The notes beneath the pieces were generated by a model, which was not told the DNA's origin, made no database searches, and worked only from the letters and a program-made list of their open reading frames with translations. A stretch of DNA of 14,980 bases, from assembly GCA_047611865.1 (NCBI GenBank), contig JBLFWS010000074.1, positions 1 to 14,980 of the forward strand, in the 5' to 3' direction. Made by a program: the position numbers and the translations under genes. The stretch is from Chlamydiales bacterium. GTDB taxonomy: Bacteria > Chlamydiota > Chlamydiia > Chlamydiales > JBDQID01. Below are positions 1-14,980 of this stretch, piece after piece. The first letter of the stretch is position 1; the number at the start of each line of letters is the position of its first letter.

Positions 1-1
1 G

Positions 2-358
2 TTCTGCTGTGATACGAAAAATATTAGCTTCCGGCACGGGGAGTTTGGAAAAGGCGGCATCCATAGCCATTTTGTAGTTGCTATCAGGATGTGTTGGAGG
101 GACAGGTCTTTCATCTCCCCAAAAAATCTTTACCTTACTCCAGTCAGCCCTATTGGCATTTTTGGGTAGAGCGAGGCGCTCGTACATGGCTTTTGGAGTA
201 CTTCCTCCTGAGAGGGCAACAAAAAAGTTTCCTCTTTTTTCGATAGCCTCATTGGCGAGAGAAAAAAAATGTTCGCTACAAAAGTCAATTGTCTTTTCGT
301 AGTCTCCAGGTATTACGATGTTGTATTTTTCTCCAAATGGCTTAATTTTGCTTTGCAT
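2..358 (-). CDS. pgl: 6-phosphogluconolactonase (DevB/Pgl), 5' part only; runs off the left edge of the window
   Basis: Not in the ORF track. Manual translation from the ATG at 358 gives MQSKIKPFGEKYNIVIPGDYEKTIDFCSEHFFSLANEAIEKRGNFFVALSGGSTPKAMYERL...DWSKVKIFWGDERPVPPTHPDSNYKMAM, open to the edge. LSGGSTP and FWGDER.VP..HPDSNY are 6PGL motifs. It follows zwf-opcA and overlaps the opcA 3' end by 17 nt. Confidence 0.95.
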   Translation of the reverse strand, partial: MQSKIKPFGEKYNIVIPGDYEKTIDFCSEHFFSLANEAIEKRGNFFVALSGGSTPKAMYERLALPKNANRADWSKVKIFWGDERPVPPTHPDSNYKMAMDAAFSKLPVPEANIFRITAE

Positions 359-1442
359 ATTCTTCCTGCTGTTTGGCTAATACCTGTAATGTTTCAAAAT
401 AATCTGAGTTTAACGGGGCATAAAAGGTTTCCTGAATCAAGGACTGTTCTTTATTGAGATACGAAAGAGGGAGTGTTATGGGGAAGTTACATCTTTCAGG
501 AGTGCTTGTCTGAATACGAATAAGCCTGTGGAGGCCTTGTCTTTTGAGGGAATATTTTTGTTTATCATGAGTGGAAATTTCAATAGAGGTGATGGCTCCT
601 GAGCAATATTCTTCACGAGATTCAGGGCTTATAGAAATAGTTAGAGTGCCGTATTTGTGCTGATAAAGAAAGTTTTGTTTTCCCTCAGAGGTGAAAGAAT
701 CGAGAAAGGACCAACCAAGCTTTGCAGCAAGCCAGCATTGTAGGTATCTTGAGCGGAGGGACGGTTGGGGTATTAGTGGGTCAATCAAGTCACTATAGCT
801 GATGTGGATATTTTGGCTTTTTGATAGATGTTCCCGCCTTTCTTTTGTATCGAAAGTTTTTGCCAGAATATGTCTCCATTCGCTAAGGCGTGCCCAATTG
901 AGATCAGTACTTGTATTGTTGGACGGGCTTAAGCGAGAGAGTAGGGTCCGGGTAAAACCGGAGAGGTCATGGCTAGCATCGGAATCATAAATAATTCTTG
1001 TGGAAAATTTTTGCAGTTGCTGGAAGGTTGAGCGGTCTTCACAAGGCTCCTTCCCCCAAGCCAGGTAAACGGGGATGTCAGGAATAATATGAGGCAATAT
1101 GATAAAAGGTACCCTTTCCAGATGCTTGCCGGCAGCTTCAATAGAAATTAACTCGCAGGTAATGCTATGGCCAAGTTTTTCTACGGATTCAGCAGAAACG
1201 CTGGTACGTAGATACTCTTGTCCTATAGTGGAGTTCCCCGTAACAAAAATTATTCGGCAGGGGTACTGATGCATAAGGGTATCGACAAGGTATTGGTAGT
1301 AATCGAGGCGTTCAGAATATGGCGCATAGATGATTAGGGTGTAAAGACAGGCACGCGCCCTGTTATCTTCATCAAAGGAATTCCATATCTCCTGTAGTTC
1401 CTCTTCTATATTTGCCAGGAAGACATCTGCTTTAGTAATCAT
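342..1442 (-). CDS. opcA: Glucose-6-phosphate dehydrogenase assembly protein OpcA
   Basis: 366 aa, located between zwf and pgl. Motifs RACLYTLII, YPCRIIFV, ITCELISI, ILPHIIPDIPVYLAW, RIIYDS, DLNWARLSEWR and WLAAKLGW are typical of OpcA. RBS-like AAGGGGGA ends 8 nt before the ATG. Confidence 0.9.
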   Translation of the reverse strand: MITKADVFLANIEEELQEIWNSFDEDNRARACLYTLIIYAPYSERLDYYQYLVDTLMHQYPCRIIFVTGNSTIGQEYLRTSVSAESVEKLGHSITCELISIEAAGKHLERVPFIILPHIIPDIPVYLAWGKEPCEDRSTFQQLQKFSTRIIYDSDASHDLSGFTRTLLSRLSPSNNTSTDLNWARLSEWRHILAKTFDTKERREHLSKSQNIHISYSDLIDPLIPQPSLRSRYLQCWLAAKLGWSFLDSFTSEGKQNFLYQHKYGTLTISISPESREEYCSGAITSIEISTHDKQKYSLKRQGLHRLIRIQTSTPERCNFPITLPLSYLNKEQSLIQETFYAPLNSDYFETLQVLAKQQEEYAKQN

Positions 1443-1464
1443 AGTAAAGGTCCCCCTTAACTTA

Positions 1465-3012
1465 TTATAGGATGCGCCAGGATCGACCTGTTTTGCTTAT
1501 CATTTCATCGGCAGCCTGCGGGCCCCATGTTCCAGAAGGGTAATTGGGGAAGTCCTCAGGTATTTCCTCGGACCACCTATCAAGTATGGGGGTCAGAAGG
1601 CGCCAGGAGGCCAGTACCTCATCACCACGCGTGAATAGTGTACTGTCACCAGAGATGCAGTCGCAGATTAATCTTTCGTAAGCATCGGGAGAGCTTAAGC
1701 CAAAGGTAGATCCATAGTGAAAATTCATTTTTACAGGTTGAAAGCGGCTGCTAAGTCCCGGAACTTTGCAATTTATTTTCAAAGAAATACCTGCGTCTGG
1801 TTGAATCCGGATTACAAGAACGTTAGCCTCAACAGACTGGACATTTTGCTGGAAAAGTATGCTGGGAACATCTTTGAAGGTGATGGCAATTTCGGTAGCG
1901 CGTTTTGGTAGTCGCTTGCCGGCGCGTAGAAAGAAAGGAACACCGGTCCAGCGCCAGTTGTCGATAAAGAATTCCAGGGCTACAAAAGTTTCTGTTTGAG
2001 ATGTGGGGCAAACATTCTCTTCTTCACGGTAACCTTTGACGCTTTGTGAATTTATGAACCCAGGGGCATATTGTCCTCGAACAACCTGCTTATGAAAAGA
2101 AGACAAATCAACTGGACGGATAGACTGGAGTACCTTGACCTTCTCGTCACGAATGGAGTCGGCGTTGAGGTTAACAGGGGGTTCCATGGCTACCAGACAG
2201 AGGAGTTGCATCAGATGGTTTTGGACGACATCGCGCAGGAGGCCAGCTTCTTCAAAAAAACGCCCTCGGGTTCCTATGCCAATGTCTTCACCTACAGTAA
2301 TTTGAATATGATCGATATTTTGCTTATTCCAAAGTGACTCAAAAATAGAATTCGCGAATCGAAAAACCATCAGGTTTTGGACTGTTTCCTTACCCAGGTA
2401 GTGATCGATACGGTAAACCTGGTCTTCACTTAAGTATTTGAGGAGGTGTTTTTCCAGAGAGATTGCCGAAGCCAAGTCGTGGCCAAAGGGCTTTTCTACG
2501 ATGACTCGGGACCATTTATCCAAAGTTGTTTTGCTATTGTATAGCAAACCGTGCTCGTAGAGTTTTTCCGTTATCAATGGAAAGTGGCTGGGAGGGGTAG
2601 AAAGGTAATGTATTCTGTTGCCACGAGTACCAAATTCTTTGTCAAGCTCATCCAAAAAAACGTGTAGAGAGCTGTATCCCAGGTCTTTGTCAAACTCAGA
2701 TTTATGATAGAAAAGCTGTTTGCTAAAGGTATCCCAAACTTCCGCATCGACCTCGCCAGTCGTTGAGTGAGTACGGATGGCATTGTACATCTCTTCTCGG
2801 AAGAGATCGTGATCCTTTTCTCTACGGGCAAATCCGACACAGGCGAATTGAGTGGGAAGCTGACCTTTGAGAGCTAGCTGATATAGCGAGGGAATAAGTT
2901 TGCGTGCGGTGAGATCTCCCGTAGCTCCGAAAATCACAAGGATGCAAGGATTTAGGGCTTCGAAGGTTTGAGATGCTTCTTCTAAGGGGTTTTCCAGGAT
3001 AGTGCTTTCCAT
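1465..3012 (-). CDS. zwf: Glucose-6-phosphate 1-dehydrogenase
   Basis: GATGDL NADP-binding motif, EKPFG, RIDHYLGKETVQN and DNWRWTGVPFFLRAGKRL. The ORF track starts at 3030. The ATG at 3012 (MESTILENP) is preferred because AGGA lies 5 nt upstream and the predicted promoter lies very close to 3030. Confidence 0.97.
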   Translation of the reverse strand: MESTILENPLEEASQTFEALNPCILVIFGATGDLTARKLIPSLYQLALKGQLPTQFACVGFARREKDHDLFREEMYNAIRTHSTTGEVDAEVWDTFSKQLFYHKSEFDKDLGYSSLHVFLDELDKEFGTRGNRIHYLSTPPSHFPLITEKLYEHGLLYNSKTTLDKWSRVIVEKPFGHDLASAISLEKHLLKYLSEDQVYRIDHYLGKETVQNLMVFRFANSIFESLWNKQNIDHIQITVGEDIGIGTRGRFFEEAGLLRDVVQNHLMQLLCLVAMEPPVNLNADSIRDEKVKVLQSIRPVDLSSFHKQVVRGQYAPGFINSQSVKGYREEENVCPTSQTETFVALEFFIDNWRWTGVPFFLRAGKRLPKRATEIAITFKDVPSILFQQNVQSVEANVLVIRIQPDAGISLKINCKVPGLSSRFQPVKMNFHYGSTFGLSSPDAYERLICDCISGDSTLFTRGDEVLASWRLLTPILDRWSEEIPEDFPNYPSGTWGPQAADEMISKTGRSWRIL

Positions 3013-3047
3013 TTTTTCCTGTCGGTACATGCTTTCGTAAGGGGGTT

Positions 3048-3076
3048 ACTATAAACTTTAACTTCGGAAAAAGCAA
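3048..3076 (-). promoter_or_regulatory. Putative sigma70/sigma66 promoter of the zwf-opcA-pgl operon
   Basis: Minus strand TTGCTT (3076-3071), 17-nt spacer, TATAGT (3053-3048), directly upstream of zwf. Confidence 0.55.
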
Positions 3077-3188
3077 GTATACAGCGATTATTCGTTGTGA
3101 ATAAGGGGTAGACGGAAATTTCAATTTTGTTGATAGTCCAGACCTAAATCTAAGTCTACAAATTCAAAATTTAACTTTCTGGTGACTT

Positions 3189-6100
3189 ATGCAAGCATTC
3201 TATCGTGATGTTCCAGCTTTCAAAAAATATATCTCTCCAAAGCTATTACAAGAGTTATTAGAAGATACTGAGCCTGTCCCTGGTGTGGCGGGGTTACAGG
3301 TAAAGCGTGGATTGATGGAGGCGTTTAGCAGAACGGAGACAGCGGAGTCACTGGATTTTATCTGTCGCTTGTATATTAAGGTGCGAAAGGATCTTTCATT
3401 ACTTTTGGAAAAGCGTCGTGTGGACCGCAATTTTATTGACATTACGACAAAAGCATGCGGGATAAGAAACGAAAAAAATGCAACGGATTACCTGAGCGTT
3501 GATTATGAGACTGTGATCGGCAAGAGAAATGAGGATGGTGAATTGGTTGTAGGTCCTTATTCGAACATGTTTTCAGGGGAACATCAGATTGCAGAAATTC
3601 CGGACTGTTTAAAGGGGAAACATGTCACCCTTTTTGGTCCTGCTGACAGTGCAAAGATGTCCATTAATGCGATGAATGCCTGGCATAGAATCCCTAAGAA
3701 TGAGTCTGCTATTATTACAAAATTGGTAAATGATTCAGGGATAATCCCCAAGTGGGGAGCAGATGATGAAGATTCCAAGACACCAGAAAACACCACCTTT
3801 GCATCAGCCTGTAATAATTTGATTGATTGTTTTCATCGAACTATATCCTTTAGAGATGAGAAGAGCTCTCAGGAATATCACTTAGCTAGTGACAAACTTT
3901 CCCTTCCTATCAAAAGACCTCCTGGTTTGGAGTTACCAGACGGTGGGCACATATTTCAAGGTAACCCTTTACCCCTTCATTTGTACGACTTCGCTAACCA
4001 TCTCTTCCATTGCTGGGATAAGCCGGAAGCTTTGAGTTTTTATATACCTAAATTGGAAAATGAAGGCGAAGCCCAGTATGTGAAAAAGCTTGTCTCCAAA
4101 GCTGAAGAGATGATTCAGGAGTTACATCCAGAATATAAGTCTGGGTCAGTACGATTGTTTATCGTGTTTGAAAATCCACGAGCCATATTTCGTATGCGTG
4201 AGATTATTTCAGAACTCTATCCCTACTTTGCTGGAGGCTCCTTGGGGTGGCACGATTACCTGGCATCAACAGCAAGGCTATTCCGTTTTGACAAAAACTA
4301 CCGCATACCTGTGAAAGCAGACCCTAACATTGTTATCGACCATATTAAAGCTTCCCATGTACTTGTAGCCAAGACTGTGGGGGAGCATGGGGGTATTGGC
4401 ATAGGAGGAATGTACGGCGTATTGCCTGAAGGGGGTAATGCGGAGTCAGAGGCTGTCGCGATGATAGGCTTTATCAAAGACGTCGTTACACAAATGAAGA
4501 GGGGCTTAGACGGTTTTTGGGTGGCTCATCCCGATTTTGTACGACCAGGAATTGCTTTGGTAGAGGCGTGGGGTAGGTATGCAGAGGATTCGGAAGATAA
4601 ATCTTTGTTTCAGCTAATTGGAGAGCTAATAGAGGATTCTCAAGATCAGGGTATGCTTGTAGAATTTATCAAAGGCAAGGATGTCATGGGATTGGATGGT
4701 GAGGATCCATTATTTCCAAGAGCTCTATTAGCGGCAAACATACGGGAATCGAATGTTATCCCTAACAATCATCCCGATGAAATACGCTATAATGTTTTTC
4801 AAGCCCTACAGTATATGGTCGATTGGCTATGCGGAAATGGTTGTGTGGCTTTACCCGCGATGATGAAAAACTCTCAGGGGAAAGATGTATTTGTACGGAT
4901 TATGGACGACCTGGCAACGACTGAGCGGTCACGCTGGGAGCTTTGGGCAGAGGTTTATCATAAAAGGTTTTCTCAGAGTGATTTTCTAAAGGTCGCTTAT
5001 GAAGAGATGCATTTTATTCAGAAGGGTAAAGAAAGCGAAATTAAAAAGACCCAGGTTAAATGGAATAAGCTAACGGAAAAATGGTACCCAGTTGCCTTAA
5101 AGGTTCTTATCCAGCTGGTGACAGATCCAAATCCAGTGGAATTTGTGAGCGAACTTTTACTTCCCTTTACTTTTGATAGCATCCGTCAGTCGGATGATCC
5201 ATGGAAGAAAGCTTCTGCAATGGAAGGGCATAAATATTCCCTGGAGGATGATGTTAGAGGGTTTTGTTCTTATTTCCAGCAATGTGGAAGTGTAAAATAT
5301 GCTGAGGGGATGTCTCAACAGGACTACAACACTGTGGAGGACTTACTCTCTATCTCACGCGAAAAGATTCTGGAATTTGATATTGATGAGATCAATGCAG
5401 CGGCGGGCTTTCACGGAACTATAGGAGAATCTCAGGCTACTCTCAATGGGGTGGAATCAGAAGAGCAGGCTCTAGTGCAAGAATCCCATGAGGAGCTTCT
5501 GGAAAAAGGATCTCTCTATCAAAAACAGTTTGGAATGAAGTTCTTGATTGCAGCGAGCGGTAAAAGCAGTGAAATAATACTGAGAGAGCTGGATGGACGT
5601 TTAAAGAATAACTTGGATGAAGAAATTCAAAATGCCAAAGAGGCTCTTGTGGCAATCACAGAAAAGCGCTTAAAAGAACAATGTGGAAACCCAGATAATT
5701 TTAGCTTCTTGTCTACGGGAAAAATCATAGAAGATCTTTTGGGAAAATATGAGGTAGCAGGTGTTAATGTGAGCCTGCTGAGAAAGGGGAGTGAAGGATT
5801 ATGTGAGCTATCAGGGGATTTCTCAGCTGGACTCTCGAATAAGGAAAACATGACAGCTATGAAAGCCGGAACTATTTTACAAATGGCCTCACTCAGCAAA
5901 ACGATTGCAGCGGCATTTGCCATGGAATATTTTAGAAAAAAAGAGATCAGCCTTGATACCCCAGTGAATGACTTACTTTTAGCGTCCGGATCTCCATTTC
6001 AAATTCAGTCGGCAGTAAATTGTCCGAATGAGTGGGCAGCAGAAGTGAGCTTGAAGCACCTTCTAAATCATTCAGCAATGGGTATGCATTATGTAGATGG

Positions 6101-8042
6101 CTATCCCTTGGGTCAGGGCAGTCCCGATGCTTTTGACCTTCTTTTAGGTACTCATGGAACTGAGGCTATTCTTTTACATAAAAAACCTGGAACAGAGTTT
6201 CATTATTCAGGGGGAGGCTTTCTCCTTCTTCAGCATTTGTTAGAAGCGATATTTTCCAAGTCAATAGCAGATATTATGCGTCCGTTTCTTGATGATTTGG
6301 GTATGCAGGATTTTAGTTTTCGTGAGATGGAAAACAAAGAATACGCTTTTGGCTTTAGGGATGATGGGAATCTCGTCGCAGCAGAGGGCCGGCTAGCTTT
6401 TCCAGAACTCGCAGCTGGTGGAGAAGGGACGACGAATGCTATGGCTAAGTTTTTGTCTCACCTCGTGAATGCCTATCATTCCCTTGAGGGTTCTGGTCCG
6501 TTATCTCATGACACCGCGGTTGAAATGCTCTATGCGGGTCGAGACTTTGGCAGTATGGAATTTATGGGGGCAAAGATGGGCCTCGGTGTCTTTTTAGGGG
6601 AAGCGGGACCTAATAGAATAGCTGTGCATCAAGCGGCAAATGATGGATTCAGGGGTTTGTATCTTGTTTGTTATAAGGGCCCCGACGAGGGAAAGGGTTT
6701 TGTAATTGTAAGCAATGGAGACAATAAGGCTACGTTGCTTAATTGTGAGATAGCCAGGAATTTGATGGAAGCTGAGGAATGGAGAGGAACGGATTTTAAA
6801 TCAATAAAGCCCCTGGAAATTACGGGTCTTAAGCAGGAAGAGATAGTCAATATAGGTGTGAAAGAAATGCTCCTTAAACATCTCTCTATTGAATTAGCAG
6901 ATCCGATGCTGGCTTTAGGAGACGTTGATCCTTTTTCTCCTGTAAACCTGGCGTGTAATTCCACAATCAACTTTTGCTCTAATCAAAGATTTGCTCGAGC
7001 AGAAAACTTGTTTTTATCGACGTTACCCGCATTTGATCCAGAGGCTTATGGAAAAGATGGCAAGATTATGGATAGCTGGGAATCTGAACGTCATAATGTA
7101 GAGGATTATGATTTTGTCGAATTTACTCTACAGTCGCCTGCTTCTTTTAATATGCTTCATCTGTCTACCATGTTTCATGATGGGAACCATGCCGAGAGTA
7201 TTCAGCTTGAAGCCTGGGAGGGTGAGCAATGGGTGGACTTGATTGAAAAAATTCCGCTTGAGGGACACTCCAGTCATTGGTTTAGGCTAGAGAAAGCTCA
7301 AGAGGGACTATGGTCTAAACTGAGATTGCGTAACTATCCTGATGGGGGAATATCCAGGATTGGACTCTATCATTTAAAAGATTTAAAACCTTTAGTTCAG
7401 GATCTTGAACTGAAGTCATTCTTGGAAGGGACAGAAAAGAAGCTAATCATTCCCTATTCTTTTTCCATTCCTACTCAAAAAGAAAAAAAAATGACAATGC
7501 CTCATCTGATTGAGGAAGCAGAAGTGGAAAAGAATTGGAAAGGCGTAAAGCTTGGGGACAGGGTCAATGTCGCGAGTGAGTGCATGGGAGGGGAAATTCT
7601 TGAGGTTTCTAACGAACACTATGGTTCTGCGTACAGGATCTTGTCGTCTGAGATAGCTCTCGGAATGGATGACGGTTTTGAAACGAAAAGGAATAGGGAA
7701 GGGAAGTTTGAAGAGATTATTTTTGCGTTAGGAAGGCCAGCAATAATTGAAGAAATAGAGCTGGATTTTACTCATTTCGTAAACAACAACCCCATGAATA
7801 TGGATGTGTCCGGATATCTTGAAGGAGAATGGATGGACTTGCTTCCTAAAACTTTTGTGAAGCCTTACCGGGGTAATAAATTTAGAAGGCATACGGAAAA
7901 ATGTGGGGATCGTGTATCACAAATTAGAGTCCGTATTTATCCCTGTGGAGGTTTTAACAGAATAAAAGTTATGTGCACGGCAGATCAGGAGCTTCTGAAA
8001 ATTGAGCAAAAAATTCAGGGGTCTGTGATGACTCCTGAATGA
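3189..8042 (+). CDS. Four-domain fusion: malate synthase A-like / OHCU decarboxylase (UraD) / beta-lactamase-family serine hydrolase / allantoicase
   Basis: 1617-aa open frame. aa ~40-660 malate synthase: ADDEDSKTP, KRPPG, FYIPKLE, IVFEN, GWHDY, GGM, DGFWVAHP, WLCGNGCV, IMDDLATTERSR. aa ~690-830 UraD: CGSVKYAEGM, HGTIGE, SEEQA, YQKQFGMKFLIAASGKS..IL..L..RL.N...E...A, ITEKRL. aa ~845-1195 serine hydrolase: ASLSK (SxxK), LLNHSA, PGTEFHYSGGG, HQAANDGF. aa ~1250-1595 two allantoicase repeats: MDSWESERH and YPDGGISRIGLY; SNEHYG, MDDGFETKRNR, DFTHFVNNNP and IYPCGGFNRIKV. Confidence 0.88.
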   Translation: MQAFYRDVPAFKKYISPKLLQELLEDTEPVPGVAGLQVKRGLMEAFSRTETAESLDFICRLYIKVRKDLSLLLEKRRVDRNFIDITTKACGIRNEKNATDYLSVDYETVIGKRNEDGELVVGPYSNMFSGEHQIAEIPDCLKGKHVTLFGPADSAKMSINAMNAWHRIPKNESAIITKLVNDSGIIPKWGADDEDSKTPENTTFASACNNLIDCFHRTISFRDEKSSQEYHLASDKLSLPIKRPPGLELPDGGHIFQGNPLPLHLYDFANHLFHCWDKPEALSFYIPKLENEGEAQYVKKLVSKAEEMIQELHPEYKSGSVRLFIVFENPRAIFRMREIISELYPYFAGGSLGWHDYLASTARLFRFDKNYRIPVKADPNIVIDHIKASHVLVAKTVGEHGGIGIGGMYGVLPEGGNAESEAVAMIGFIKDVVTQMKRGLDGFWVAHPDFVRPGIALVEAWGRYAEDSEDKSLFQLIGELIEDSQDQGMLVEFIKGKDVMGLDGEDPLFPRALLAANIRESNVIPNNHPDEIRYNVFQALQYMVDWLCGNGCVALPAMMKNSQGKDVFVRIMDDLATTERSRWELWAEVYHKRFSQSDFLKVAYEEMHFIQKGKESEIKKTQVKWNKLTEKWYPVALKVLIQLVTDPNPVEFVSELLLPFTFDSIRQSDDPWKKASAMEGHKYSLEDDVRGFCSYFQQCGSVKYAEGMSQQDYNTVEDLLSISREKILEFDIDEINAAAGFHGTIGESQATLNGVESEEQALVQESHEELLEKGSLYQKQFGMKFLIAASGKSSEIILRELDGRLKNNLDEEIQNAKEALVAITEKRLKEQCGNPDNFSFLSTGKIIEDLLGKYEVAGVNVSLLRKGSEGLCELSGDFSAGLSNKENMTAMKAGTILQMASLSKTIAAAFAMEYFRKKEISLDTPVNDLLLASGSPFQIQSAVNCPNEWAAEVSLKHLLNHSAMGMHYVDGYPLGQGSPDAFDLLLGTHGTEAILLHKKPGTEFHYSGGGFLLLQHLLEAIFSKSIADIMRPFLDDLGMQDFSFREMENKEYAFGFRDDGNLVAAEGRLAFPELAAGGEGTTNAMAKFLSHLVNAYHSLEGSGPLSHDTAVEMLYAGRDFGSMEFMGAKMGLGVFLGEAGPNRIAVHQAANDGFRGLYLVCYKGPDEGKGFVIVSNGDNKATLLNCEIARNLMEAEEWRGTDFKSIKPLEITGLKQEEIVNIGVKEMLLKHLSIELADPMLALGDVDPFSPVNLACNSTINFCSNQRFARAENLFLSTLPAFDPEAYGKDGKIMDSWESERHNVEDYDFVEFTLQSPASFNMLHLSTMFHDGNHAESIQLEAWEGEQWVDLIEKIPLEGHSSHWFRLEKAQEGLWSKLRLRNYPDGGISRIGLYHLKDLKPLVQDLELKSFLEGTEKKLIIPYSFSIPTQKEKKMTMPHLIEEAEVEKNWKGVKLGDRVNVASECMGGEILEVSNEHYGSAYRILSSEIALGMDDGFETKRNREGKFEEIIFALGRPAIIEEIELDFTHFVNNNPMNMDVSGYLEGEWMDLLPKTFVKPYRGNKFRRHTEKCGDRVSQIRVRIYPCGGFNRIKVMCTADQELLKIEQKIQGSVMTPE

Positions 8043-8072
8043 TATGTCCTCTTAGCAATTTGAGCGTTGAAA

Positions 8073-8111
8073 GTGCGACACAAAAAAGTAATCAACTCTT
8101 TTGTGCCGCAC
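8073..8111 (-). terminator. Stem-loop between the convergent fusion gene and MATE gene; probable terminator
   Basis: Plus strand GTGCGACACAAAAAAG-TAATCAA-CTCTTTTGTGCCGCAC. The two A/C mismatches become G-U pairs in the minus-strand RNA, giving a ~16-bp continuous stem that starts 10 nt after the MATE stop. It is followed by only a short UUUC. Confidence 0.6.
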
Positions 8112-8120
8112 CTACCGAGC

Positions 8121-9500
8121 TTAAACCAAGCGCTTTGTTTTCCAGCTTCCTTTGCGGAATCTTAAGTAAAAACAAAGGGCATTGATTGCGGCATAGCCGT
8201 TGAGTATGACCCAAACATAACTGGGCGGGCAATCCCCCTGCACTACGAGGAAATAAACGGGAAGAACAGCAAAGGTCCAGGTGGTGACGGTGTTGATGAT
8301 CATCACATATGTGGTCTCGCCAGCAGCCGTAAGTACTCCGGCCGATATCCAGGTTAATCCATCGAGGACAAAGTAGAAAAAAATGCATGCAGCAGTAATT
8401 CTTAACATTGCCGTTAAGTGAATAAGCCGCTCGGGGTTCATATCATCAGATAGAAAAAAACTGATAATGGGATCAGGGTAGAGTAATAAAATCGGGGCCA
8501 CCAAAAGCGCATAAATAAAGAGGAGTCGAACTGCAGACTTCCAGGCTTTTAGGATTAGGGCAGGTTTTCTTGCTCCCAAAAAGTTTGCACTGATGGTGGT
8601 GATTCCTTTCTGTAAACCTTCCATGGCATAAGATATTAGGGCATAAAAACATTGGCCCATAGCTGCAACGGTGATGTGATCTTCACCGACGCCAATCAAC
8701 AGACGAGTAATCAATGCCCAAGCGGAAATTTCTATCATATGGCCCATCGCACTGGGAACTCCAACTTTAAGACAGTTCCAAAATACCTGGATTTTGAAGC
8801 CATACCTTCTTGTTCCATACTGAAGATTGTAGTGCTTATTCAGAAAACTGCTTAAGAGAACTAAGACCTGGATGAACATGGAGATTACAGTGGCAATAGC
8901 TGCTCCTTCACAACCCATAGCTGGAATGATTTCTCTAAAACCGAATACTAAAAGGATATCTAGAATGACGTTTAGGACATTTCCGATAATTGCTGCTTTT
9001 GTGACAATGCGTACTGAACCAATACCAATGAAAAATGCAGATATGGCTGTTTGCATAGGGAAAAGTGGGCCAAAATAAAGTAGCCATTGAAAATAGGGAA
9101 GAGCATGACTCTCATAATGGTAGTCAGCAAGAAAGAGCGGCCCTCCCCAATGGGCAATAGCAAAGAAAACGGGCCAGCAGAATAAAGAAAACCAGATCAT
9201 TTGCCAGGCAGGGCTAGCTGCCTTGTCCTTTTCTCCAGCTCCATTATGTTGTCCTACAAAAACTTCAGCAATTGAACTTATGCCGATGGCTCCATAATGG
9301 AAGACAAAGATGACCATGCCAGCAGCAGCAGCAGCGTTCATAGCTTCCAGGGAGAATTTTGCCAAAATAAGGCGGTCTAGAAAGAGCATGACGCTTCCTG
9401 ATAAAACGGAAAGCATCAGGGGGAATGAGATGGCAAACATCTCTTTGATGCTGCCTTCAGGATGTCTAGTTAATTTTTGAATTTTACTTTTAGTAGTCAT
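8121..9500 (-). CDS. MATE family efflux transporter
   Basis: 459 aa with about 12 hydrophobic segments. Motifs ISFPLMLS...FLDRLILA, VGQHNGAG, GNVLNVILDILLVFG...PAMGCEGAAIAT and ISANFLGA are typical of MATE. AGGA RBS lies 6 nt upstream of the ATG. Confidence 0.92.
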   Translation of the reverse strand: MTTKSKIQKLTRHPEGSIKEMFAISFPLMLSVLSGSVMLFLDRLILAKFSLEAMNAAAAAGMVIFVFHYGAIGISSIAEVFVGQHNGAGEKDKAASPAWQMIWFSLFCWPVFFAIAHWGGPLFLADYHYESHALPYFQWLLYFGPLFPMQTAISAFFIGIGSVRIVTKAAIIGNVLNVILDILLVFGFREIIPAMGCEGAAIATVISMFIQVLVLLSSFLNKHYNLQYGTRRYGFKIQVFWNCLKVGVPSAMGHMIEISAWALITRLLIGVGEDHITVAAMGQCFYALISYAMEGLQKGITTISANFLGARKPALILKAWKSAVRLLFIYALLVAPILLLYPDPIISFFLSDDMNPERLIHLTAMLRITAACIFFYFVLDGLTWISAGVLTAAGETTYVMIINTVTTWTFAVLPVYFLVVQGDCPPSYVWVILNGYAAINALCFYLRFRKGSWKTKRLV

Positions 9501-9677
9501 GGTGTGTCCTATTACACAAAAATATAAGTATAAAAAATATTAAAATCAGATTCTGCAGTACAGCAAATAAAACGAATATCTTCTTTCGTTAAATGGCAAA
9601 CTACAAAGGTAAGGCAACAAAGTAGACAGAGAGAAATGATATTTCAAAGTGTTGCTACAGTGTCTTCTTTCTTTGAC

Positions 9678-9713
9678 TTATGCAGAGAATGGAGTTTTGT
9701 GAATGACTATCAT
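9678..9713 (-). other. Candidate 11-aa leader peptide (uORF) MIVIHKTPFSA in the MATE 5' leader
   Basis: Minus strand AGGGAG-acgtc-ATG ATA GTC ATT CAC AAA ACT CCA TTC TCT GCA TAA, ~40 nt downstream of a good promoter match. Translation is not demonstrated. Confidence 0.35.
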
Positions 9714-9755
9714 GACGTCTCCCTAATATTCGGAGGAAATTAAAAACTATTTACA

Positions 9756-9784
9756 AGTATAGCAATTGCAGATGGATATGTAAA
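9756..9784 (-). promoter_or_regulatory. Putative sigma70/sigma66 promoter for the MATE gene
   Basis: Minus strand TTTACA (9784-9779), 17-nt spacer, TATACT (9761-9756). Both hexamers match consensus at 5/6, and the upstream sequence is AT-rich. Confidence 0.6.
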
Positions 9785-9824
9785 TAAAATTTGTGTTGAG
9801 ATTAGAATTTTGTCGGGTGAAGAC

Positions 9825-10295
9825 CTATCCCTGACCCAACTTACTAATAATATCAAACTCATTTTTCTTGATAGGCTGGATAGAAAGTCTTACCCCTTTT
9901 TTTATGAGTGTCATGTCTTCTAGTCCGGGGGTTTCTCTAATTTGTGATAGAGGAACATAGGTTGAAAATTTCTCGACAAATTCGAAGTCGACCATATACC
10001 AAGTTGGATCTTCTTTTTTGGTCTTTGGATCGAAGGTCTTGCACTTGGGGTCCCAGGCTGTAAAGTCGGGGTATCCCTCCTTGCAAACTTGGACGACACC
10101 TGCAGCTCCAGGAGGGTTTGTGCTGGAGTGATAAAAGATGGCTATGTCACCAATCTTTAGGGTGTCACGTAGAAAGTTTCGTGCCTGATAATTTCGTATC
10201 CCATCCCAATGTTCCTGATGATTTTTTTCCATGTCGTCGATGGAGTAGGCTGAGGGCTCGGACTTGATTAACCAGTAGTTGATGTTCTTCGCCAT
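9825..10295 (-). CDS. EVE domain-containing protein (PUA-like, THYN1-type)
   Basis: YWLIKSEP..YSIDD, WDGIRNYQARNFLR, GD..IFYHS, YPDFTAWDP, PTWYMVD and RLSIQPI are EVE signatures. RBS AAGGAG overlaps the nadA stop. Confidence 0.95.
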   Translation of the reverse strand: MAKNINYWLIKSEPSAYSIDDMEKNHQEHWDGIRNYQARNFLRDTLKIGDIAIFYHSSTNPPGAAGVVQVCKEGYPDFTAWDPKCKTFDPKTKKEDPTWYMVDFEFVEKFSTYVPLSQIRETPGLEDMTLIKKGVRLSIQPIKKNEFDIISKLGQG

Positions 10296-10307
10296 TTCCA
10301 GGACTCC

Positions 10308-11342
10308 TTAGCTGTATTTGAACATTTCTTCGAGGCAGTTCTTTGCCCCTTTACGAACATCTTCTTCGACTTCCACAATGTCATCCGGACGAGGATCTCT
10401 TAGGGCTCTTTCAAGCTGTCCGAGAGTATTAGACTTCATATATTTGCACAACATGCAAGTTCCGGCCATTTTAGCTTCTGGGACTTCAATTTGAAGACGA
10501 GAGACCAGGCCGCATTCAGTGAGTAGCAGGAAGCGATTGTTGTCCTTGGCATGTTCTTTGACATAGTTTGCCATTCCTGTGGTGGAGCCCACGACGTCAG
10601 CTTTTGCTAGAACTTCAGGGGTACATTCCGGGTGGGCTAGAACGACTGTGTTGGGGTGGAATTCTTTTGCTATGTCAATGAGCTCGGGAGTAAATTGTTC
10701 GTGTACATAACAGGTGCCATCATAGAGAAGAATTTCCTTTTTGATACCTTTCTGACGTAAGTGTTCACGAATATTGAGTCCCATTAGCTTATCAGGGACA
10801 AAGTAAATTTTGTCGTTGGGGTATTCTTCTACAATTTTGTAGACATTAGAAGAGGTGACACATACATCACAGGCGGCCTTTACGGCAGCAGTGGTGTTGA
10901 TGTAGCACATGAAAGTATGCTCAGGATGACTTTTACGAAGTGCTAGGACATCTTCTGCTGTAATACTGTCAGCTAGTGAGCAGCCACCGTTAGGGTTGGG
11001 ATCGATGACAAGTTTGTCTGGATTCAAAATTTTTGCAGTTTCAGCCATAAAGCGTACGGAGGGGAAAACGATCGTAGATTCAGTAGCCTCCATTGCTTTT
11101 AGGGCAAGGCCATAAGAGTCACCGACATGGTCCGCGACAGTATAAATAATGTCGGGGTGGACGTAGGAATGTGCGAGAATCAGTGCATTTCTTTGCTTTT
11201 TTAATTCGAGGATTCGGTTGACGGTAGGGACCAGGCGTTCACAACGTTCTAAGCTGTAAAGGCAAGCTGGATTATCAACTTGAACATCTTTAAGTTTTAG
11301 GTAGAGGTCATCCGCTGACCATTTGTCAGTTTGCATTGTCAT
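10308..11342 (-). CDS. nadA: Quinolinate synthase NadA
   Basis: ILAHSY, GDSYGL, VRFMAETAKILNPDK, GGCSLA, YINT...KA, CVTSSN, GTCYVH, AHPEC, GSTTGM and CKYMK. The three [4Fe-4S] cysteines are present. Confidence 0.96.
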   Translation of the reverse strand: MTMQTDKWSADDLYLKLKDVQVDNPACLYSLERCERLVPTVNRILELKKQRNALILAHSYVHPDIIYTVADHVGDSYGLALKAMEATESTIVFPSVRFMAETAKILNPDKLVIDPNPNGGCSLADSITAEDVLALRKSHPEHTFMCYINTTAAVKAACDVCVTSSNVYKIVEEYPNDKIYFVPDKLMGLNIREHLRQKGIKKEILLYDGTCYVHEQFTPELIDIAKEFHPNTVVLAHPECTPEVLAKADVVGSTTGMANYVKEHAKDNNRFLLLTECGLVSRLQIEVPEAKMAGTCMLCKYMKSNTLGQLERALRDPRPDDIVEVEEDVRKGAKNCLEEMFKYS

Positions 11343-11364
11343 GAGAGTGATTCCATAAAGATCA

Positions 11365-11856
11365 TTAAAAGTTGTCAGGAAAATTAGGCATTTCGGGCAT
11401 CAGGGTATTCGATTTTCCGTCGAGGTAGCTTTGTAGGATAAGTACCGCGGCAATAGAGTCAATGGCTTTGGCGCGTTTTTTTCTGGAAAGTTTTGCATCA
11501 CGCATGGAGCGATCAGCTTGCATGGATGTCAGGCGTTCATCCCAAGTAACGAGTGGGCACGTAATCGCCTCTCGGAGGAGGTCTGAGAATTGAACGGCTT
11601 CATCAGTCATTGAGCTCATAGAACCGTTCATTTTTAATGGTAAGCCCACTACGACTTCGTCGATGCCTTTACCACTTTCTTCAAGACGTGCGATTTCCGT
11701 CGCAACTTTTGCGACGGAATCTTCAATCTTTTTTTCCGCTTTAATGGTAGTTAAAGGGGAGGCGATGATCTTTCGTTCATCGCTCATAGCCATCCCTATA
11801 CGTGCCCTTCCATAGTCAATGCCGATTGATCGGCTCTTTCTTCCTTGATTTAACAT
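11365..11856 (-). CDS. ruvX: YqgF/RuvX family nuclease (pre-16S rRNA nuclease / putative Holliday junction resolvase)
   Basis: IGIDYGRARIGMAMSD, VVVGLPLKMNG, WDERLTS and IDSIAAVLILQSYLD. Confidence 0.95.
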   Translation of the reverse strand: MLNQGRKSRSIGIDYGRARIGMAMSDERKIIASPLTTIKAEKKIEDSVAKVATEIARLEESGKGIDEVVVGLPLKMNGSMSSMTDEAVQFSDLLREAITCPLVTWDERLTSMQADRSMRDAKLSRKKRAKAIDSIAAVLILQSYLDGKSNTLMPEMPNFPDNF

Positions 11857-11860
11857 ACAA

Positions 11861-14238
<2,378 letters not shown>

Positions 14239-14279
14239 AAGCTGAATATCTACCAATTCTTCTTACTATTTAACGCAAT

Positions 14280-14309
14280 ATAGTACCCTTAATTACACAT
14301 AAGTTTCAA
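14280..14309 (-). promoter_or_regulatory. Possible sigma70/sigma66 promoter for kdsB-pyrG-ruvX-nadA-EVE
   Basis: Minus strand TTGAAA (14309-14304), 18-nt spacer, TACTAT (14285-14280). The region is AT-rich, so a chance match is possible. Confidence 0.4.
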
Positions 14310-14603
14310 GAGAAGTTTTTCAAAGTAGTACTAGTAAAATACTTAATTTAAAAAGTAGCTGAAAAGGAGGGGTGAAGCTGCTAAAGTTATTTTTACATTT
14401 GGGACTGGTCTTTTTACGTAATTCACCACTGAGCCATTTAGAACACAGAGGAGTGATGAGATAGGGAGACAGGGCAATCGAATTACAATAATTTCTTGAC
14501 CTTCTCATGACAGTAACCTGCGGGATTCAGAAAAAATATCCCAAATTTAATAGTGTTTCGGTGGTGACGCAGCTGCCGCAGTTCTATTTTTTAATTTACT
14601 TGC

Positions 14604-14635
14604 TATACCGGGCCTTGCTCGCAAGGCCCGGTATA
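14604..14635. repeat. Perfect 15-bp inverted repeat (palindrome) with a 2-nt spacer
   Basis: TATACCGGGCCTTGC-TC-GCAAGGCCCGGTATA; the two arms are exact reverse complements. Confidence 0.9.
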
Positions 14636-14643
14636 ATGGTAAG

Positions 14644-14677
14644 AAAAAAATGTGAGCACCGCAGGTACGGCACTCAC
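14644..14677 (-). terminator. Intrinsic (Rho-independent) terminator on the minus strand
   Basis: Minus-strand RNA GUGAGUGCCG-UACCUG-CGGUGCUCAC-A-UUUUUUU: a 10-bp GC-rich stem with two G-U pairs (mismatches on the other strand) followed by seven U. Confidence 0.7.
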
Positions 14678-14980
14678 TCAGAATTTATAATGGCAGACAG
14701 CTATTCCAGGTTATACTATCGCTTAAAAAAAATAGCTTCTAAGAAATATCGAAAAAATCTTTTAAAATATTATTTATAATACGATTGCCTTCATAGGGAG
14801 AAACTAAGCTGTTATTTTTTCACGTATTGTCATTTCTTGAAGGGTCACCTTGTTTAAGGTGATTGATTGGGTATAGGCTTTAACTTGCTGATCAATTTTA
14901 ATATGAAGCTATTGAAAATGGCTTAAAATGCCTGATCGTATGACTCCCCCTCAGGTATCTGACATGTTCTCTGTGTTCTC

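Follow-up and report, generated by a model that had tools for sequence, protein, structure and literature searches.

A beta-lactamase-fold serine hydrolase domain in a four-module purine-catabolic fusion protein as a candidate third class of allantoinase

We analysed a 14,980-nucleotide stretch of DNA from a Chlamydiales bacterium (GenBank assembly GCA_047611865.1, contig JBLFWS010000074.1, positions 1 to 14,980 of the forward strand; hereafter the window). A single uninterrupted open reading frame (ORF) at positions 3189-8042 of the + strand encodes a protein of 1617 amino acids (aa), designated P0001. According to Pfam, and in agreement with NCBIfam, its domains follow the order malate-synthase-like, 2-oxo-4-hydroxy-4-carboxy-5-ureidoimidazoline (OHCU) decarboxylase, PF00144 and allantoicase. 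Judged from sequence and gene context, the PF00144 domain (aa ~847-1232) is probably an SxxK serine hydrolase of the class C beta-lactamase/DD-peptidase fold that was recruited as an allantoinase, and we assign this reading a probability of roughly 0.7. It builds on what was observed: the combination of domains, catalytic residues that are intact and invariant, the fold, the kinds of fusion and the gene neighbourhoods. An earlier note on this DNA, made from the letters alone, had put the domain forward as a candidate allantoinase. That proposal is supported by the fusions in which the domain occurs, by the purine operons of its bacterial relatives and by the lack of a recognisable AllB or PuuE in 80 neighbourhoods. 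The parts of the ORF are listed below.

3189..8042, + strand: P0001, the four-module ORF (ORF list, translation, Pfam and NCBIfam tables)
3189..5258, + strand: malate-synthase-like module, aa 1-690 (Pfam MS_TIM-barrel at aa 241-451, MS_C at aa 530-654)
5295..5675, + strand: OHCU decarboxylase (UraD), aa 703-829 (PF09349, E 5.2e-18), which makes (S)-allantoin
5727..6884, + strand: beta-lactamase-fold, S12-type serine hydrolase, aa 847-1232 (PF00144), the proposed allantoinase
5889..5900, + strand: S901-L-S-K904, with nucleophile Ser and general-base Lys, invariant in 301/301 sequences
6060..6077, + strand: LLNHSA, aa 958-963, with H961 nearly invariant and an invariant H967-Y968 just downstream
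6204..6212, + strand: Y1006-S-G, the second motif, with Y, S and G each invariant in 301/301 sequences
6627..6653, + strand: H1147-Q-A-A-N-D-G-F-R1155, the third motif and family signature, with H, N1151, G1153 and R1155 invariant
6960..7982, + strand: allantoicase in two repeats, aa 1258-1394 and about 1458-1598 (PF03561, E 3.9e-48, two stretches)

The earlier note had placed the beta-lactamase domain between UraD and allantoicase, and this position was confirmed (OHCU_decarbox at aa 703-829, allantoicase from aa 1258). Both flanks were named correctly, but the malate-synthase-like N-terminal 690 aa went unmentioned. The OHCU decarboxylase domain matches NF010372 and TIGR03180, both under the cut-off, and the allantoicase part scores 172.6 bits with TIGR02961. 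Allantoicase converts allantoate to ureidoglycolate and urea.

The PF00144 match of P0001 covers aa 846-1180 with an E-value of 4.9e-26 (92.1 bits, Pfam cut-off 27) and, as a sequence match, is far beyond chance. The span first given for the domain, 5721-6773 (aa 845-1195), does hold this match, but the family homology extends past it to about aa 1232 (position 6884). A script check found all four reported motifs exactly at the claimed positions: SLSK at 901, LLNHSA at 958, YSG at 1006 and HQAANDGF at 1147. Conservation was determined on 301 aligned members of the family, of which 79 are encoded in the gene loci, 116 are long proteins from databases and 106 are stand-alone forms; the sets were not de-duplicated. 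This analysis revealed that S901, L902, S903, K904, H967, Y968, Y1006, S1007 and G1008 are invariant in 301/301 sequences, and so are F1071, P1072, A1076, G1077, H1147, N1151, G1153 and R1155. The second motif of class C beta-lactamases is Y-x-N; the family under study retains the Tyr, and Gly stands at the Asn position throughout. The third motif of the fold, K/H-x-G, sits on strand beta3. It had been described as atypical in the window domain, and H1147-QAANDGF is indeed present there. The HGGGTNGQ of esterase IS11 (7spn), however, aligns with HQAANDGF column for column, so that the departure is merely H-x-A for H-x-G, one Gly-to-Ala change. The motif H[QH][AG][AS]N[DE]G[FYV]R was found in 115 of the 120 homologues from the search for proteins of 220-702 aa. 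Because remoter relatives (~490 aa, ~30-35% identity) read ASISK ... HGGANEGFR, Gln at position 1148 marks the core family.

An AlphaFold2 model of the domain was built from a 22-sequence alignment and reached a pLDDT of 93.9 and a pTM of 0.93. The PDB matches listed by Foldseek all have the beta-lactamase fold, with a best E-value of 4.3e-21 and query-normalised TM-scores of 0.62-0.70, so that the domain has the two-domain architecture (alpha/beta plus all-alpha) of S12 enzymes. The best among these matches were Pyrococcus PAB87, esterase IS11, human LACTB, R61 DD-peptidase, class C beta-lactamases and D-amino-acid amidase. A PDB search with the domain sequence gave weak matches, the best being 7spn (E 5.6e-06), which serve motif alignment and not function. 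With the class C beta-lactamase model NF033085 the domain scores 23.7 bits against a cut-off of 415. NCBIfam contains no clade-specific model for this part of the protein, its best beta-lactamase-type matches reaching 23.7 bits, and the look-alikes in the ESM Atlas were solely generic 'Beta-lactamase domain-containing protein' clusters. By sequence and predicted structure, the domain is an S12-type serine hydrolase with intact catalytic residues, distant from every characterised member.

Such a domain might be a serine hydrolase that is associated with the pathway and acts on another substrate, e.g. in side-product salvage or detoxification or as a peptidase or esterase, or it might be a scaffold such as an oligomerisation module. 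PF00144 is functionally very diverse, and the domain's closest relatives of known structure comprise esterases, D-peptidases and LACTB; moreover, no curated family names the clade. On the other side, the catalytic Ser, Lys, Tyr and His are strictly invariant over the 301 sequences, which argues for catalysis. The repeated fusions of varied architecture and the operon place among enzymes of consecutive steps, both described below, argue for a role in the pathway step itself. We consider another substrate or a scaffold role rather unlikely.

To collect the family, aa 840-1240 were compared without a profile against 1.84 billion representative proteins. Of the 4091 matches at E <= 1e-3, 1431 reached E <= 1e-10 and 111 reached E <= 1e-30, and the homology spans query residues 8-393. 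When the 56 best representative clusters were analysed with Pfam, 31 contained allantoicase, 2 contained OHCU decarboxylase only and 23 were stand-alone proteins of ~400 aa. Both of the proteins with OHCU decarboxylase only are truncated, and one of them is the window's own protein cut at the contig end. The architectures comprise the domain followed by allantoicase (~750 aa), the same pair preceded by OHCU decarboxylase (~1000 aa), the four-module form that begins with malate synthase (about 1500-1700 aa) and, in protein P0047, the domain followed by ureidoglycolate lyase (PF04115) and allantoicase. The malate synthase domain is held by 12 of the 56 clusters. At E <= 1e-10 we found 354 homologues of 889-2830 aa, and PF03561 was present in 119 of the 120 listed; the remaining one is a truncated copy of the window protein. 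In the source databases the long homologues are named 'serine hydrolase', 'malate synthase', 'allantoicase' or 'hypothetical protein', and their named hosts include Oligoflexus, Bdellovibrio, Bacteriovoracaceae and Halobacteriovorax marinus. One comes from a eukaryotic transcriptome, Percolomonas cosmopolitus (53% identical), and may be of bacterial origin. The check on linkage suggested in the earlier note thus gave a positive result: homologues with the HQ[AG]ANDGFR-type motif recur in fusions with allantoicase, with OHCU decarboxylase and with domains that handle ureidoglycolate, and 33/56 clusters carry allantoicase and/or OHCU decarboxylase.

For the analysis of gene neighbourhoods, GTDB species genomes were scanned with the family alignment, and the best 80 of 235 loci were taken with up to 10 kb per side. 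These 80 loci come nearly all from Bdellovibrionota, with zero Chlamydiales genomes among them. Their ORFs were clustered, and the cluster representatives were scanned with Pfam and selected candidates with NCBIfam. The fusion is present in 79 of the 80 loci, with 61 complete fusion ORFs of a median length of 1561 aa. In these 79 loci we observed a PuuD-type urate oxidase (PF06181) in 53, a transthyretin-type 5-hydroxyisourate (HIU) hydrolase (PF00576) in 52, xanthine dehydrogenase genes (XdhA, XdhB or XdhC) in 25 and a CDA-type deaminase in 7. In 45 loci the HIU hydrolase gene immediately precedes the fusion on the same strand, and the usual operon reads urate oxidase, HIU hydrolase, fusion. 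In L078, labelled Planctomycetota, a classical uricase (PF01014) replaces the PuuD type. Where at least 3 kb was available on both sides (n=40), urate oxidase occurred in 36 loci and HIU hydrolase in 34, and L039 alone had none of these genes. The bacterial fusion is therefore linked to purine catabolism through clusters with urate oxidase, HIU hydrolase and xanthine dehydrogenase, as the earlier note had proposed to check.

The same neighbourhoods bear on the suggestion that the domain is an HIU hydrolase analogue, which would open the 5-hydroxyisourate ring just before the OHCU decarboxylase acts. That reaction is likewise a cyclic amide hydrolysis, the domain adjoins the OHCU decarboxylase domain, and there is no HIU hydrolase gene in the window. 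The separate PF00576 genes of 52/79 loci contradict this alternative of the earlier note, and the one in locus L001 passes the TIGR02962 cut-off. In addition, many family members are fused to allantoicase alone, without OHCU decarboxylase. An HIU hydrolase function is very improbable.

The step that lacks a gene of its own is allantoinase. A recognisable AllB or PuuE was found within 10 kb of the fusion in 0/80 loci, for which 381/503 cluster representatives were scanned. These represent the top 30 clusters, the remaining 232 with a length of 230-560 aa, and 119 smaller or larger clusters that recur or are close to core genes. The loci account for urate oxidase, HIU hydrolase, OHCU decarboxylase, allantoicase and a module related to glyoxylate, but not for allantoinase, and the beta-lactamase domain is the only part without an assigned step. 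Within P0001 itself there was no match at E <= 0.01 to the AllB-type amidohydrolase TIM barrel (PF01979; TIGR03178), none to the PuuE-type polysaccharide-deacetylase fold (PF01522) and none to the transthyretin-like PF00576.

Among the 381 representatives, the amidohydrolase and deacetylase matches comprised three candidates only, and each was rejected. The Amidohydro_1 cluster (L011, L018, L073) scores 472 bits as guanine deaminase (cut-off 351). The ORF L004:17226-18623 is a dihydropyrimidinase (608 bits, cut-off 393) and reaches 284 bits with the allantoinase model (cut-off 358). L013:4228-5091 is a generic polysaccharide deacetylase, whose best NCBIfam matches are peptidoglycan deacetylases, with no PuuE match listed.

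The locus L001 (Pseudobacteriovorax sp., 50% identical) is of particular use, as a separate 747-aa protein of the beta-lactamase-fold domain and allantoicase is encoded there beside other pathway genes:

L001, ureidoglycolate lyase: NF009932, 183 bits, cut-off 160
L001, OHCU decarboxylase: NF010372, 161 bits, cut-off 124
L001, HIU hydrolase: TIGR02962, 127 bits, cut-off 87
L001, further genes, side by side: urate oxidase, XdhA, XdhB, XdhC

As far as genes can be recognised by their sequence, all steps from xanthine to glyoxylate are present in L001 bar allantoinase, and the beta-lactamase domain is the one unassigned part.

The N-terminal module of P0001 (aa 1-690) is a candidate ureidoglycolate lyase or malate synthase. 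With the malate synthase A model TIGR01344 it scores 133.8 bits against a cut-off of 594.5. The GRWDY of Bacillus anthracis malate synthase A corresponds to GWHDY in the window module, i.e. the Arg is lost. The module retains the Trp of GTWVAHP and the residues that align with what we take to be the Mg ligands of malate synthase. Stand-alone bacterial homologues of ~680 aa form a large family, are 53-59% identical to it and are named 'hypothetical' or 'malate synthase'; their hosts are Persicimonas caeni, Bradymonadaceae, Myxococcota, Planctomycetota and Halobacteriovoraceae. In the accessible portion of PMC10120013, a malate-synthase-like paralogue is described as the ureidoglycolate lyase of zebrafish (DrMSL), changed at Arg276Ile. 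The ureidoglycolate lyase (UGL) group is presented in that portion as eukaryote-only, and genuine malate synthase genes are stated to occur within purine operons (PMC10120013). The correspondence of Arg276 to the GRWDY Arg was inferred by residue counting in the 3cux alignment. The zebrafish enzyme was not among the 120 matches listed in the search with the N-terminal 690 aa, all of which are bacterial or metagenomic proteins of ~680 aa.

The PF04115 lyase was found exactly where the malate-synthase-like module is absent (L001, P0047). The two complement each other, which suggests that in the long fusions the module serves as ureidoglycolate lyase. The low malate synthase A score, the loss of the GRWDY Arg and the Arg276Ile change of DrMSL fit the same assignment. 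From its sequence, the module may be a bacterial counterpart of the eukaryotic malate-synthase-like ureidoglycolate lyase.

The identity of this module decides how much room is left for the other alternative in the earlier note, ureidoglycolate cleavage. In that case the beta-lactamase-fold domain would degrade ureidoglycolate as an amidohydrolase or lyase analogue, the N-terminal module would be a true malate synthase using glyoxylate, and allantoinase would be encoded elsewhere. The domain is fused directly to allantoicase, the producer of ureidoglycolate, and none of the 78 loci with a fusion from the malate-synthase-containing cluster showed a PF04115 lyase. The occurrence of genuine malate synthase genes in purine operons and the retained GTWVAHP Trp and putative Mg ligands point the same way. 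Nevertheless, a PF04115 lyase stands next to the domain-allantoicase protein in L001 and inside the fusion in P0047, so in these two cases the beta-lactamase domain is not needed for the ureidoglycolate step. For the module to be a true malate synthase, its 134 bits against 594.5, the missing GRWDY Arg and the restriction of PF04115 to proteins without it would have to be explained, and allantoinase would be left unaccounted for across all 80 neighbourhoods. The PF04115 lyases of L001 and P0047 weaken this alternative, and a small residual chance is kept for it because the module could be either malate synthase or lyase.

Several points weigh against the assignment of the domain as an allantoinase. 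To our knowledge, no SxxK enzyme opens a hydantoin ring, and the nearest solved structures found by Foldseek share at most 22% identity with the domain. The Ala of the third motif, which had been regarded as atypical, is not found in most bacterial homologues: position 1149 is Gly (HQG) in 78/79 locus proteins and in 112/116 fused bacterial proteins from the databases, and Ala in the window domain and 103/106 stand-alone forms. The domain order of P0001 had been said to match the pathway order. This holds for OHCU decarboxylase, beta-lactamase and allantoicase, but it is broken by the N-terminal malate-synthase-like domain. If that domain is a true malate synthase, most loci are without a gene for two steps, and the beta-lactamase domain could serve ureidoglycolate cleavage. 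The locus ORFs (at least 90 aa) were predicted by a crude custom script, which gave 877 ORFs in 503 BLASTP clusters, and 122 of these clusters, singletons outside 230-560 aa and away from core genes, were left out of the scan. A canonical allantoinase could also sit elsewhere in the genomes, beyond the 10-kb neighbourhoods. Finally, none of the other genes present in the window is a purine-catabolic neighbour of the fusion.

The window itself encodes pgl, opcA and zwf (1-3030) on one side of the fusion and MatE, EVE, nadA, ruvX, pyrG and kdsB (8121-14256) on the other. Their products are 6-phosphogluconolactonase, OpcA, glucose-6-phosphate dehydrogenase, a MatE transporter, an EVE-domain protein, NadA, RuvX, CTP synthase and KdsB, and the fusion gene is the sole + strand gene of the window. 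The arrangement kdsB-pyrG-ruvX ... zwf-pgl presumably resembles that of Chlamydia genomes. The statement that no allantoinase is encoded in the window proved correct, as none of its genes is allantoinase-like. Since urate oxidase and HIU hydrolase genes are also missing from the window, this absence alone says little. Because none of its other genes is purine-catabolic, the window alone gives only the intra-protein (Rosetta-stone) argument.

In the allantoinase reaction (EC 3.5.2.5), the hydantoin ring is opened at an amide carbonyl, and this carbonyl ends up as the allantoate carboxylate. By analogy, this is formally the same transformation as that catalysed by a beta-lactamase on a lactam. 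The substrate, the acyl-enzyme chemistry and the roles of the signature residues are what we infer for the domain, as follows. Ser901, helped by Lys904 and Tyr1006, would attack the ring carbonyl of (S)-allantoin, which would be supplied by the OHCU decarboxylase domain upstream. The hydantoin ring would open to give a covalent acyl-enzyme, like a beta-lactam ring, and water would deacylate it to allantoate. The invariant H1147, N1151 and R1155, together with H967-Y968, probably bind the ureido and carbonyl groups. The allantoicase domain downstream would convert allantoate to ureidoglycolate and urea, and the malate-synthase-like module would then either split ureidoglycolate, like the vertebrate malate-synthase-like enzyme, or condense the resulting glyoxylate. 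One polypeptide would in this way take OHCU to glyoxylate or malate. The unit of OHCU decarboxylase, beta-lactamase-fold domain and allantoicase would cover three consecutive steps and may favour the hand-over of (S)-allantoin before racemisation.

The stand-alone forms differ in their hosts. At E <= 1e-20 we found 196 homologues of 220-702 aa, and the named ones are mostly eukaryotic: Prymnesium parvum, Amorphochlora amoebiformis, Sphaeroforma arctica, and MMETSP and EukProt transcripts. A strict peroxisomal targeting signal type 1 (PTS1) tripeptide, [SAC][KRH][LM], ends 47 of the 106 stand-alone proteins of 380-520 aa, and in 29 of the 47 it is SKL. These ends fit the urate pathway of eukaryotes, which is peroxisomal according to the accessible portions of PMC10120013 and PMC8919083. 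A tree of 302 domain sequences (the 301 members and the window domain, 5706-6908) was calculated with FastTree and midpoint-rooted. The window domain pairs with P0152 (77% identical) with a support of 1.0, both having the HQA motif, and the pair next joins L001 and the stand-alone P0004 with a support of 0.99. Together with the Percolomonas transcript, the window domain, P0152, L001 and P0004 are inside a 108-member clade of mostly eukaryotic stand-alone PTS1 proteins (support 0.64), separate from the main HQG clade of Bdellovibrionota. With a basal support of 0.64, this position in the tree is a hint that genes were exchanged between protists and either Chlamydiales or predatory bacteria.

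Taken further, these data lead to a wider proposal, for and against which we see the chances as evenly balanced. The domain would represent a third, evolutionarily independent class of allantoinase that uses a beta-lactamase scaffold and works through a covalent acyl-serine, and in Bdellovibrionota and a Chlamydiales lineage it would be part of a ~1600-aa megaenzyme that includes a malate-synthase-like ureidoglycolate lyase. In four consecutive reactions on one polypeptide, OHCU would be converted to glyoxylate and two urea. The stand-alone PTS1 proteins would be the peroxisomal allantoinases of many protists, among them haptophytes, chlorarachniophytes and ichthyosporeans.

Some further features of the bacterial loci were recorded. 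The cluster 1 urate oxidase (L070:5550-7166 and 53 other loci) is of the membrane PuuD type (PF06181, Urate_ox_N); its representative has a CarboxypepD_reg-like domain at the end and no NCBIfam model match. In L037, genes for urate oxidase and HIU hydrolase accompany a tblastn match to the domain (4902-5906), but no long fusion ORF was predicted there, possibly owing to a frameshift or a pseudogene. In L056:472-5207 the last allantoicase repeat is a separate 155-aa ORF, and the L072 fusion, at 2005 aa, carries extra sequence. In L013:12058-16798 and in L068, MoeA, MoaA-like, MoaC/MobA and MoaE-ThiF genes lie between the fusion and the xanthine dehydrogenase genes; these molybdenum-cofactor genes fit a self-contained purine-oxidation island. 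Downstream of the purine cluster of L004 (L004:15758-19504) are genes for an aldehyde dehydrogenase, a dihydropyrimidinase (TIGR02033, 608 bits), a CN-hydrolase and a class III aminotransferase, which look like a reductive pyrimidine-catabolism set.

Missing steps of purine breakdown have repeatedly been filled by unrelated enzymes, e.g. PuuE, PuuD and the malate-synthase-like ureidoglycolate lyase. PuuE was reportedly found through a missing gene in a cluster (Ramazzina et al. 2008). If the serine-type allantoinase is real, it is a third solution for the opening of the allantoin ring and extends beta-lactamase-fold chemistry to hydantoins. The names 'serine hydrolase', 'beta-lactamase' or 'malate synthase' would have to be corrected for hundreds of proteins, and one could reconstruct how predatory bacteria, environmental Chlamydiales and marine protists recycle purines and nitrogen. 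Our full-text literature searches, with most subscription papers outside their scope, returned no report of a beta-lactamase-fold or serine-type allantoinase or of the four-domain fusion. In its accessible portion, an October 2026 review (PMC13751858) names only two types of allantoinase, the metal-dependent amidohydrolase (AllB, DAL1, PucH) and the metal-independent PuuE. We regard the domain as a known fold in a probable new functional role and, among enzymes with this known activity, as a probable third class.

Among the known systems, AllB, DAL1 and PucH are amidohydrolase TIM barrels with a binuclear metal, and PuuE has the polysaccharide-deacetylase fold. The predicted reaction of the domain (EC 3.5.2.5) and its place in urate-to-glyoxylate clusters are the same as theirs. 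It differs from them in that it has no sequence or fold kinship with either (no PF01979, no PF01522) and in the proposed acyl-serine intermediate, in contrast to metal- or base-activated water. With PF00144/MEROPS S12 proteins (class C enzymes, Streptomyces R61, Est-Y29, IS11, PAB87, LACTB, D-amino-acid amidase) the domain shares the fold, the SxxK motif, the catalytic Tyr and the third-motif His. It is set apart from these by YSG in place of Y-x-N, its own signature HQ[AG]ANDGFR, the invariant H967-Y968 and a context of purine catabolism instead of cell wall or resistance. The allantoicase-OHCU decarboxylase fusion model NF010371 (521 positions) matches both corresponding parts of P0001 and likewise describes a fusion of nearby ureide steps; unlike the four-domain architecture, such fusions are without a beta-lactamase-fold domain. 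Proteins of the four-domain architecture (about 1550-1620 aa) bear only the source names 'serine hydrolase', 'malate synthase' or 'hypothetical protein'. The N-terminal module resembles DrMSL and the UGL group, as far as they are described in the accessible portion of PMC10120013, in being a malate synthase paralogue that is linked to allantoicase and has lost the Arg aligned with Arg276. In contrast to DrMSL, it has Trp in place of Ile at the Arg276 position and keeps the Trp that DrMSL changed to Met, and the window module is bacterial and of about 690 aa, whereas the group in that portion of PMC10120013 is eukaryote-only.

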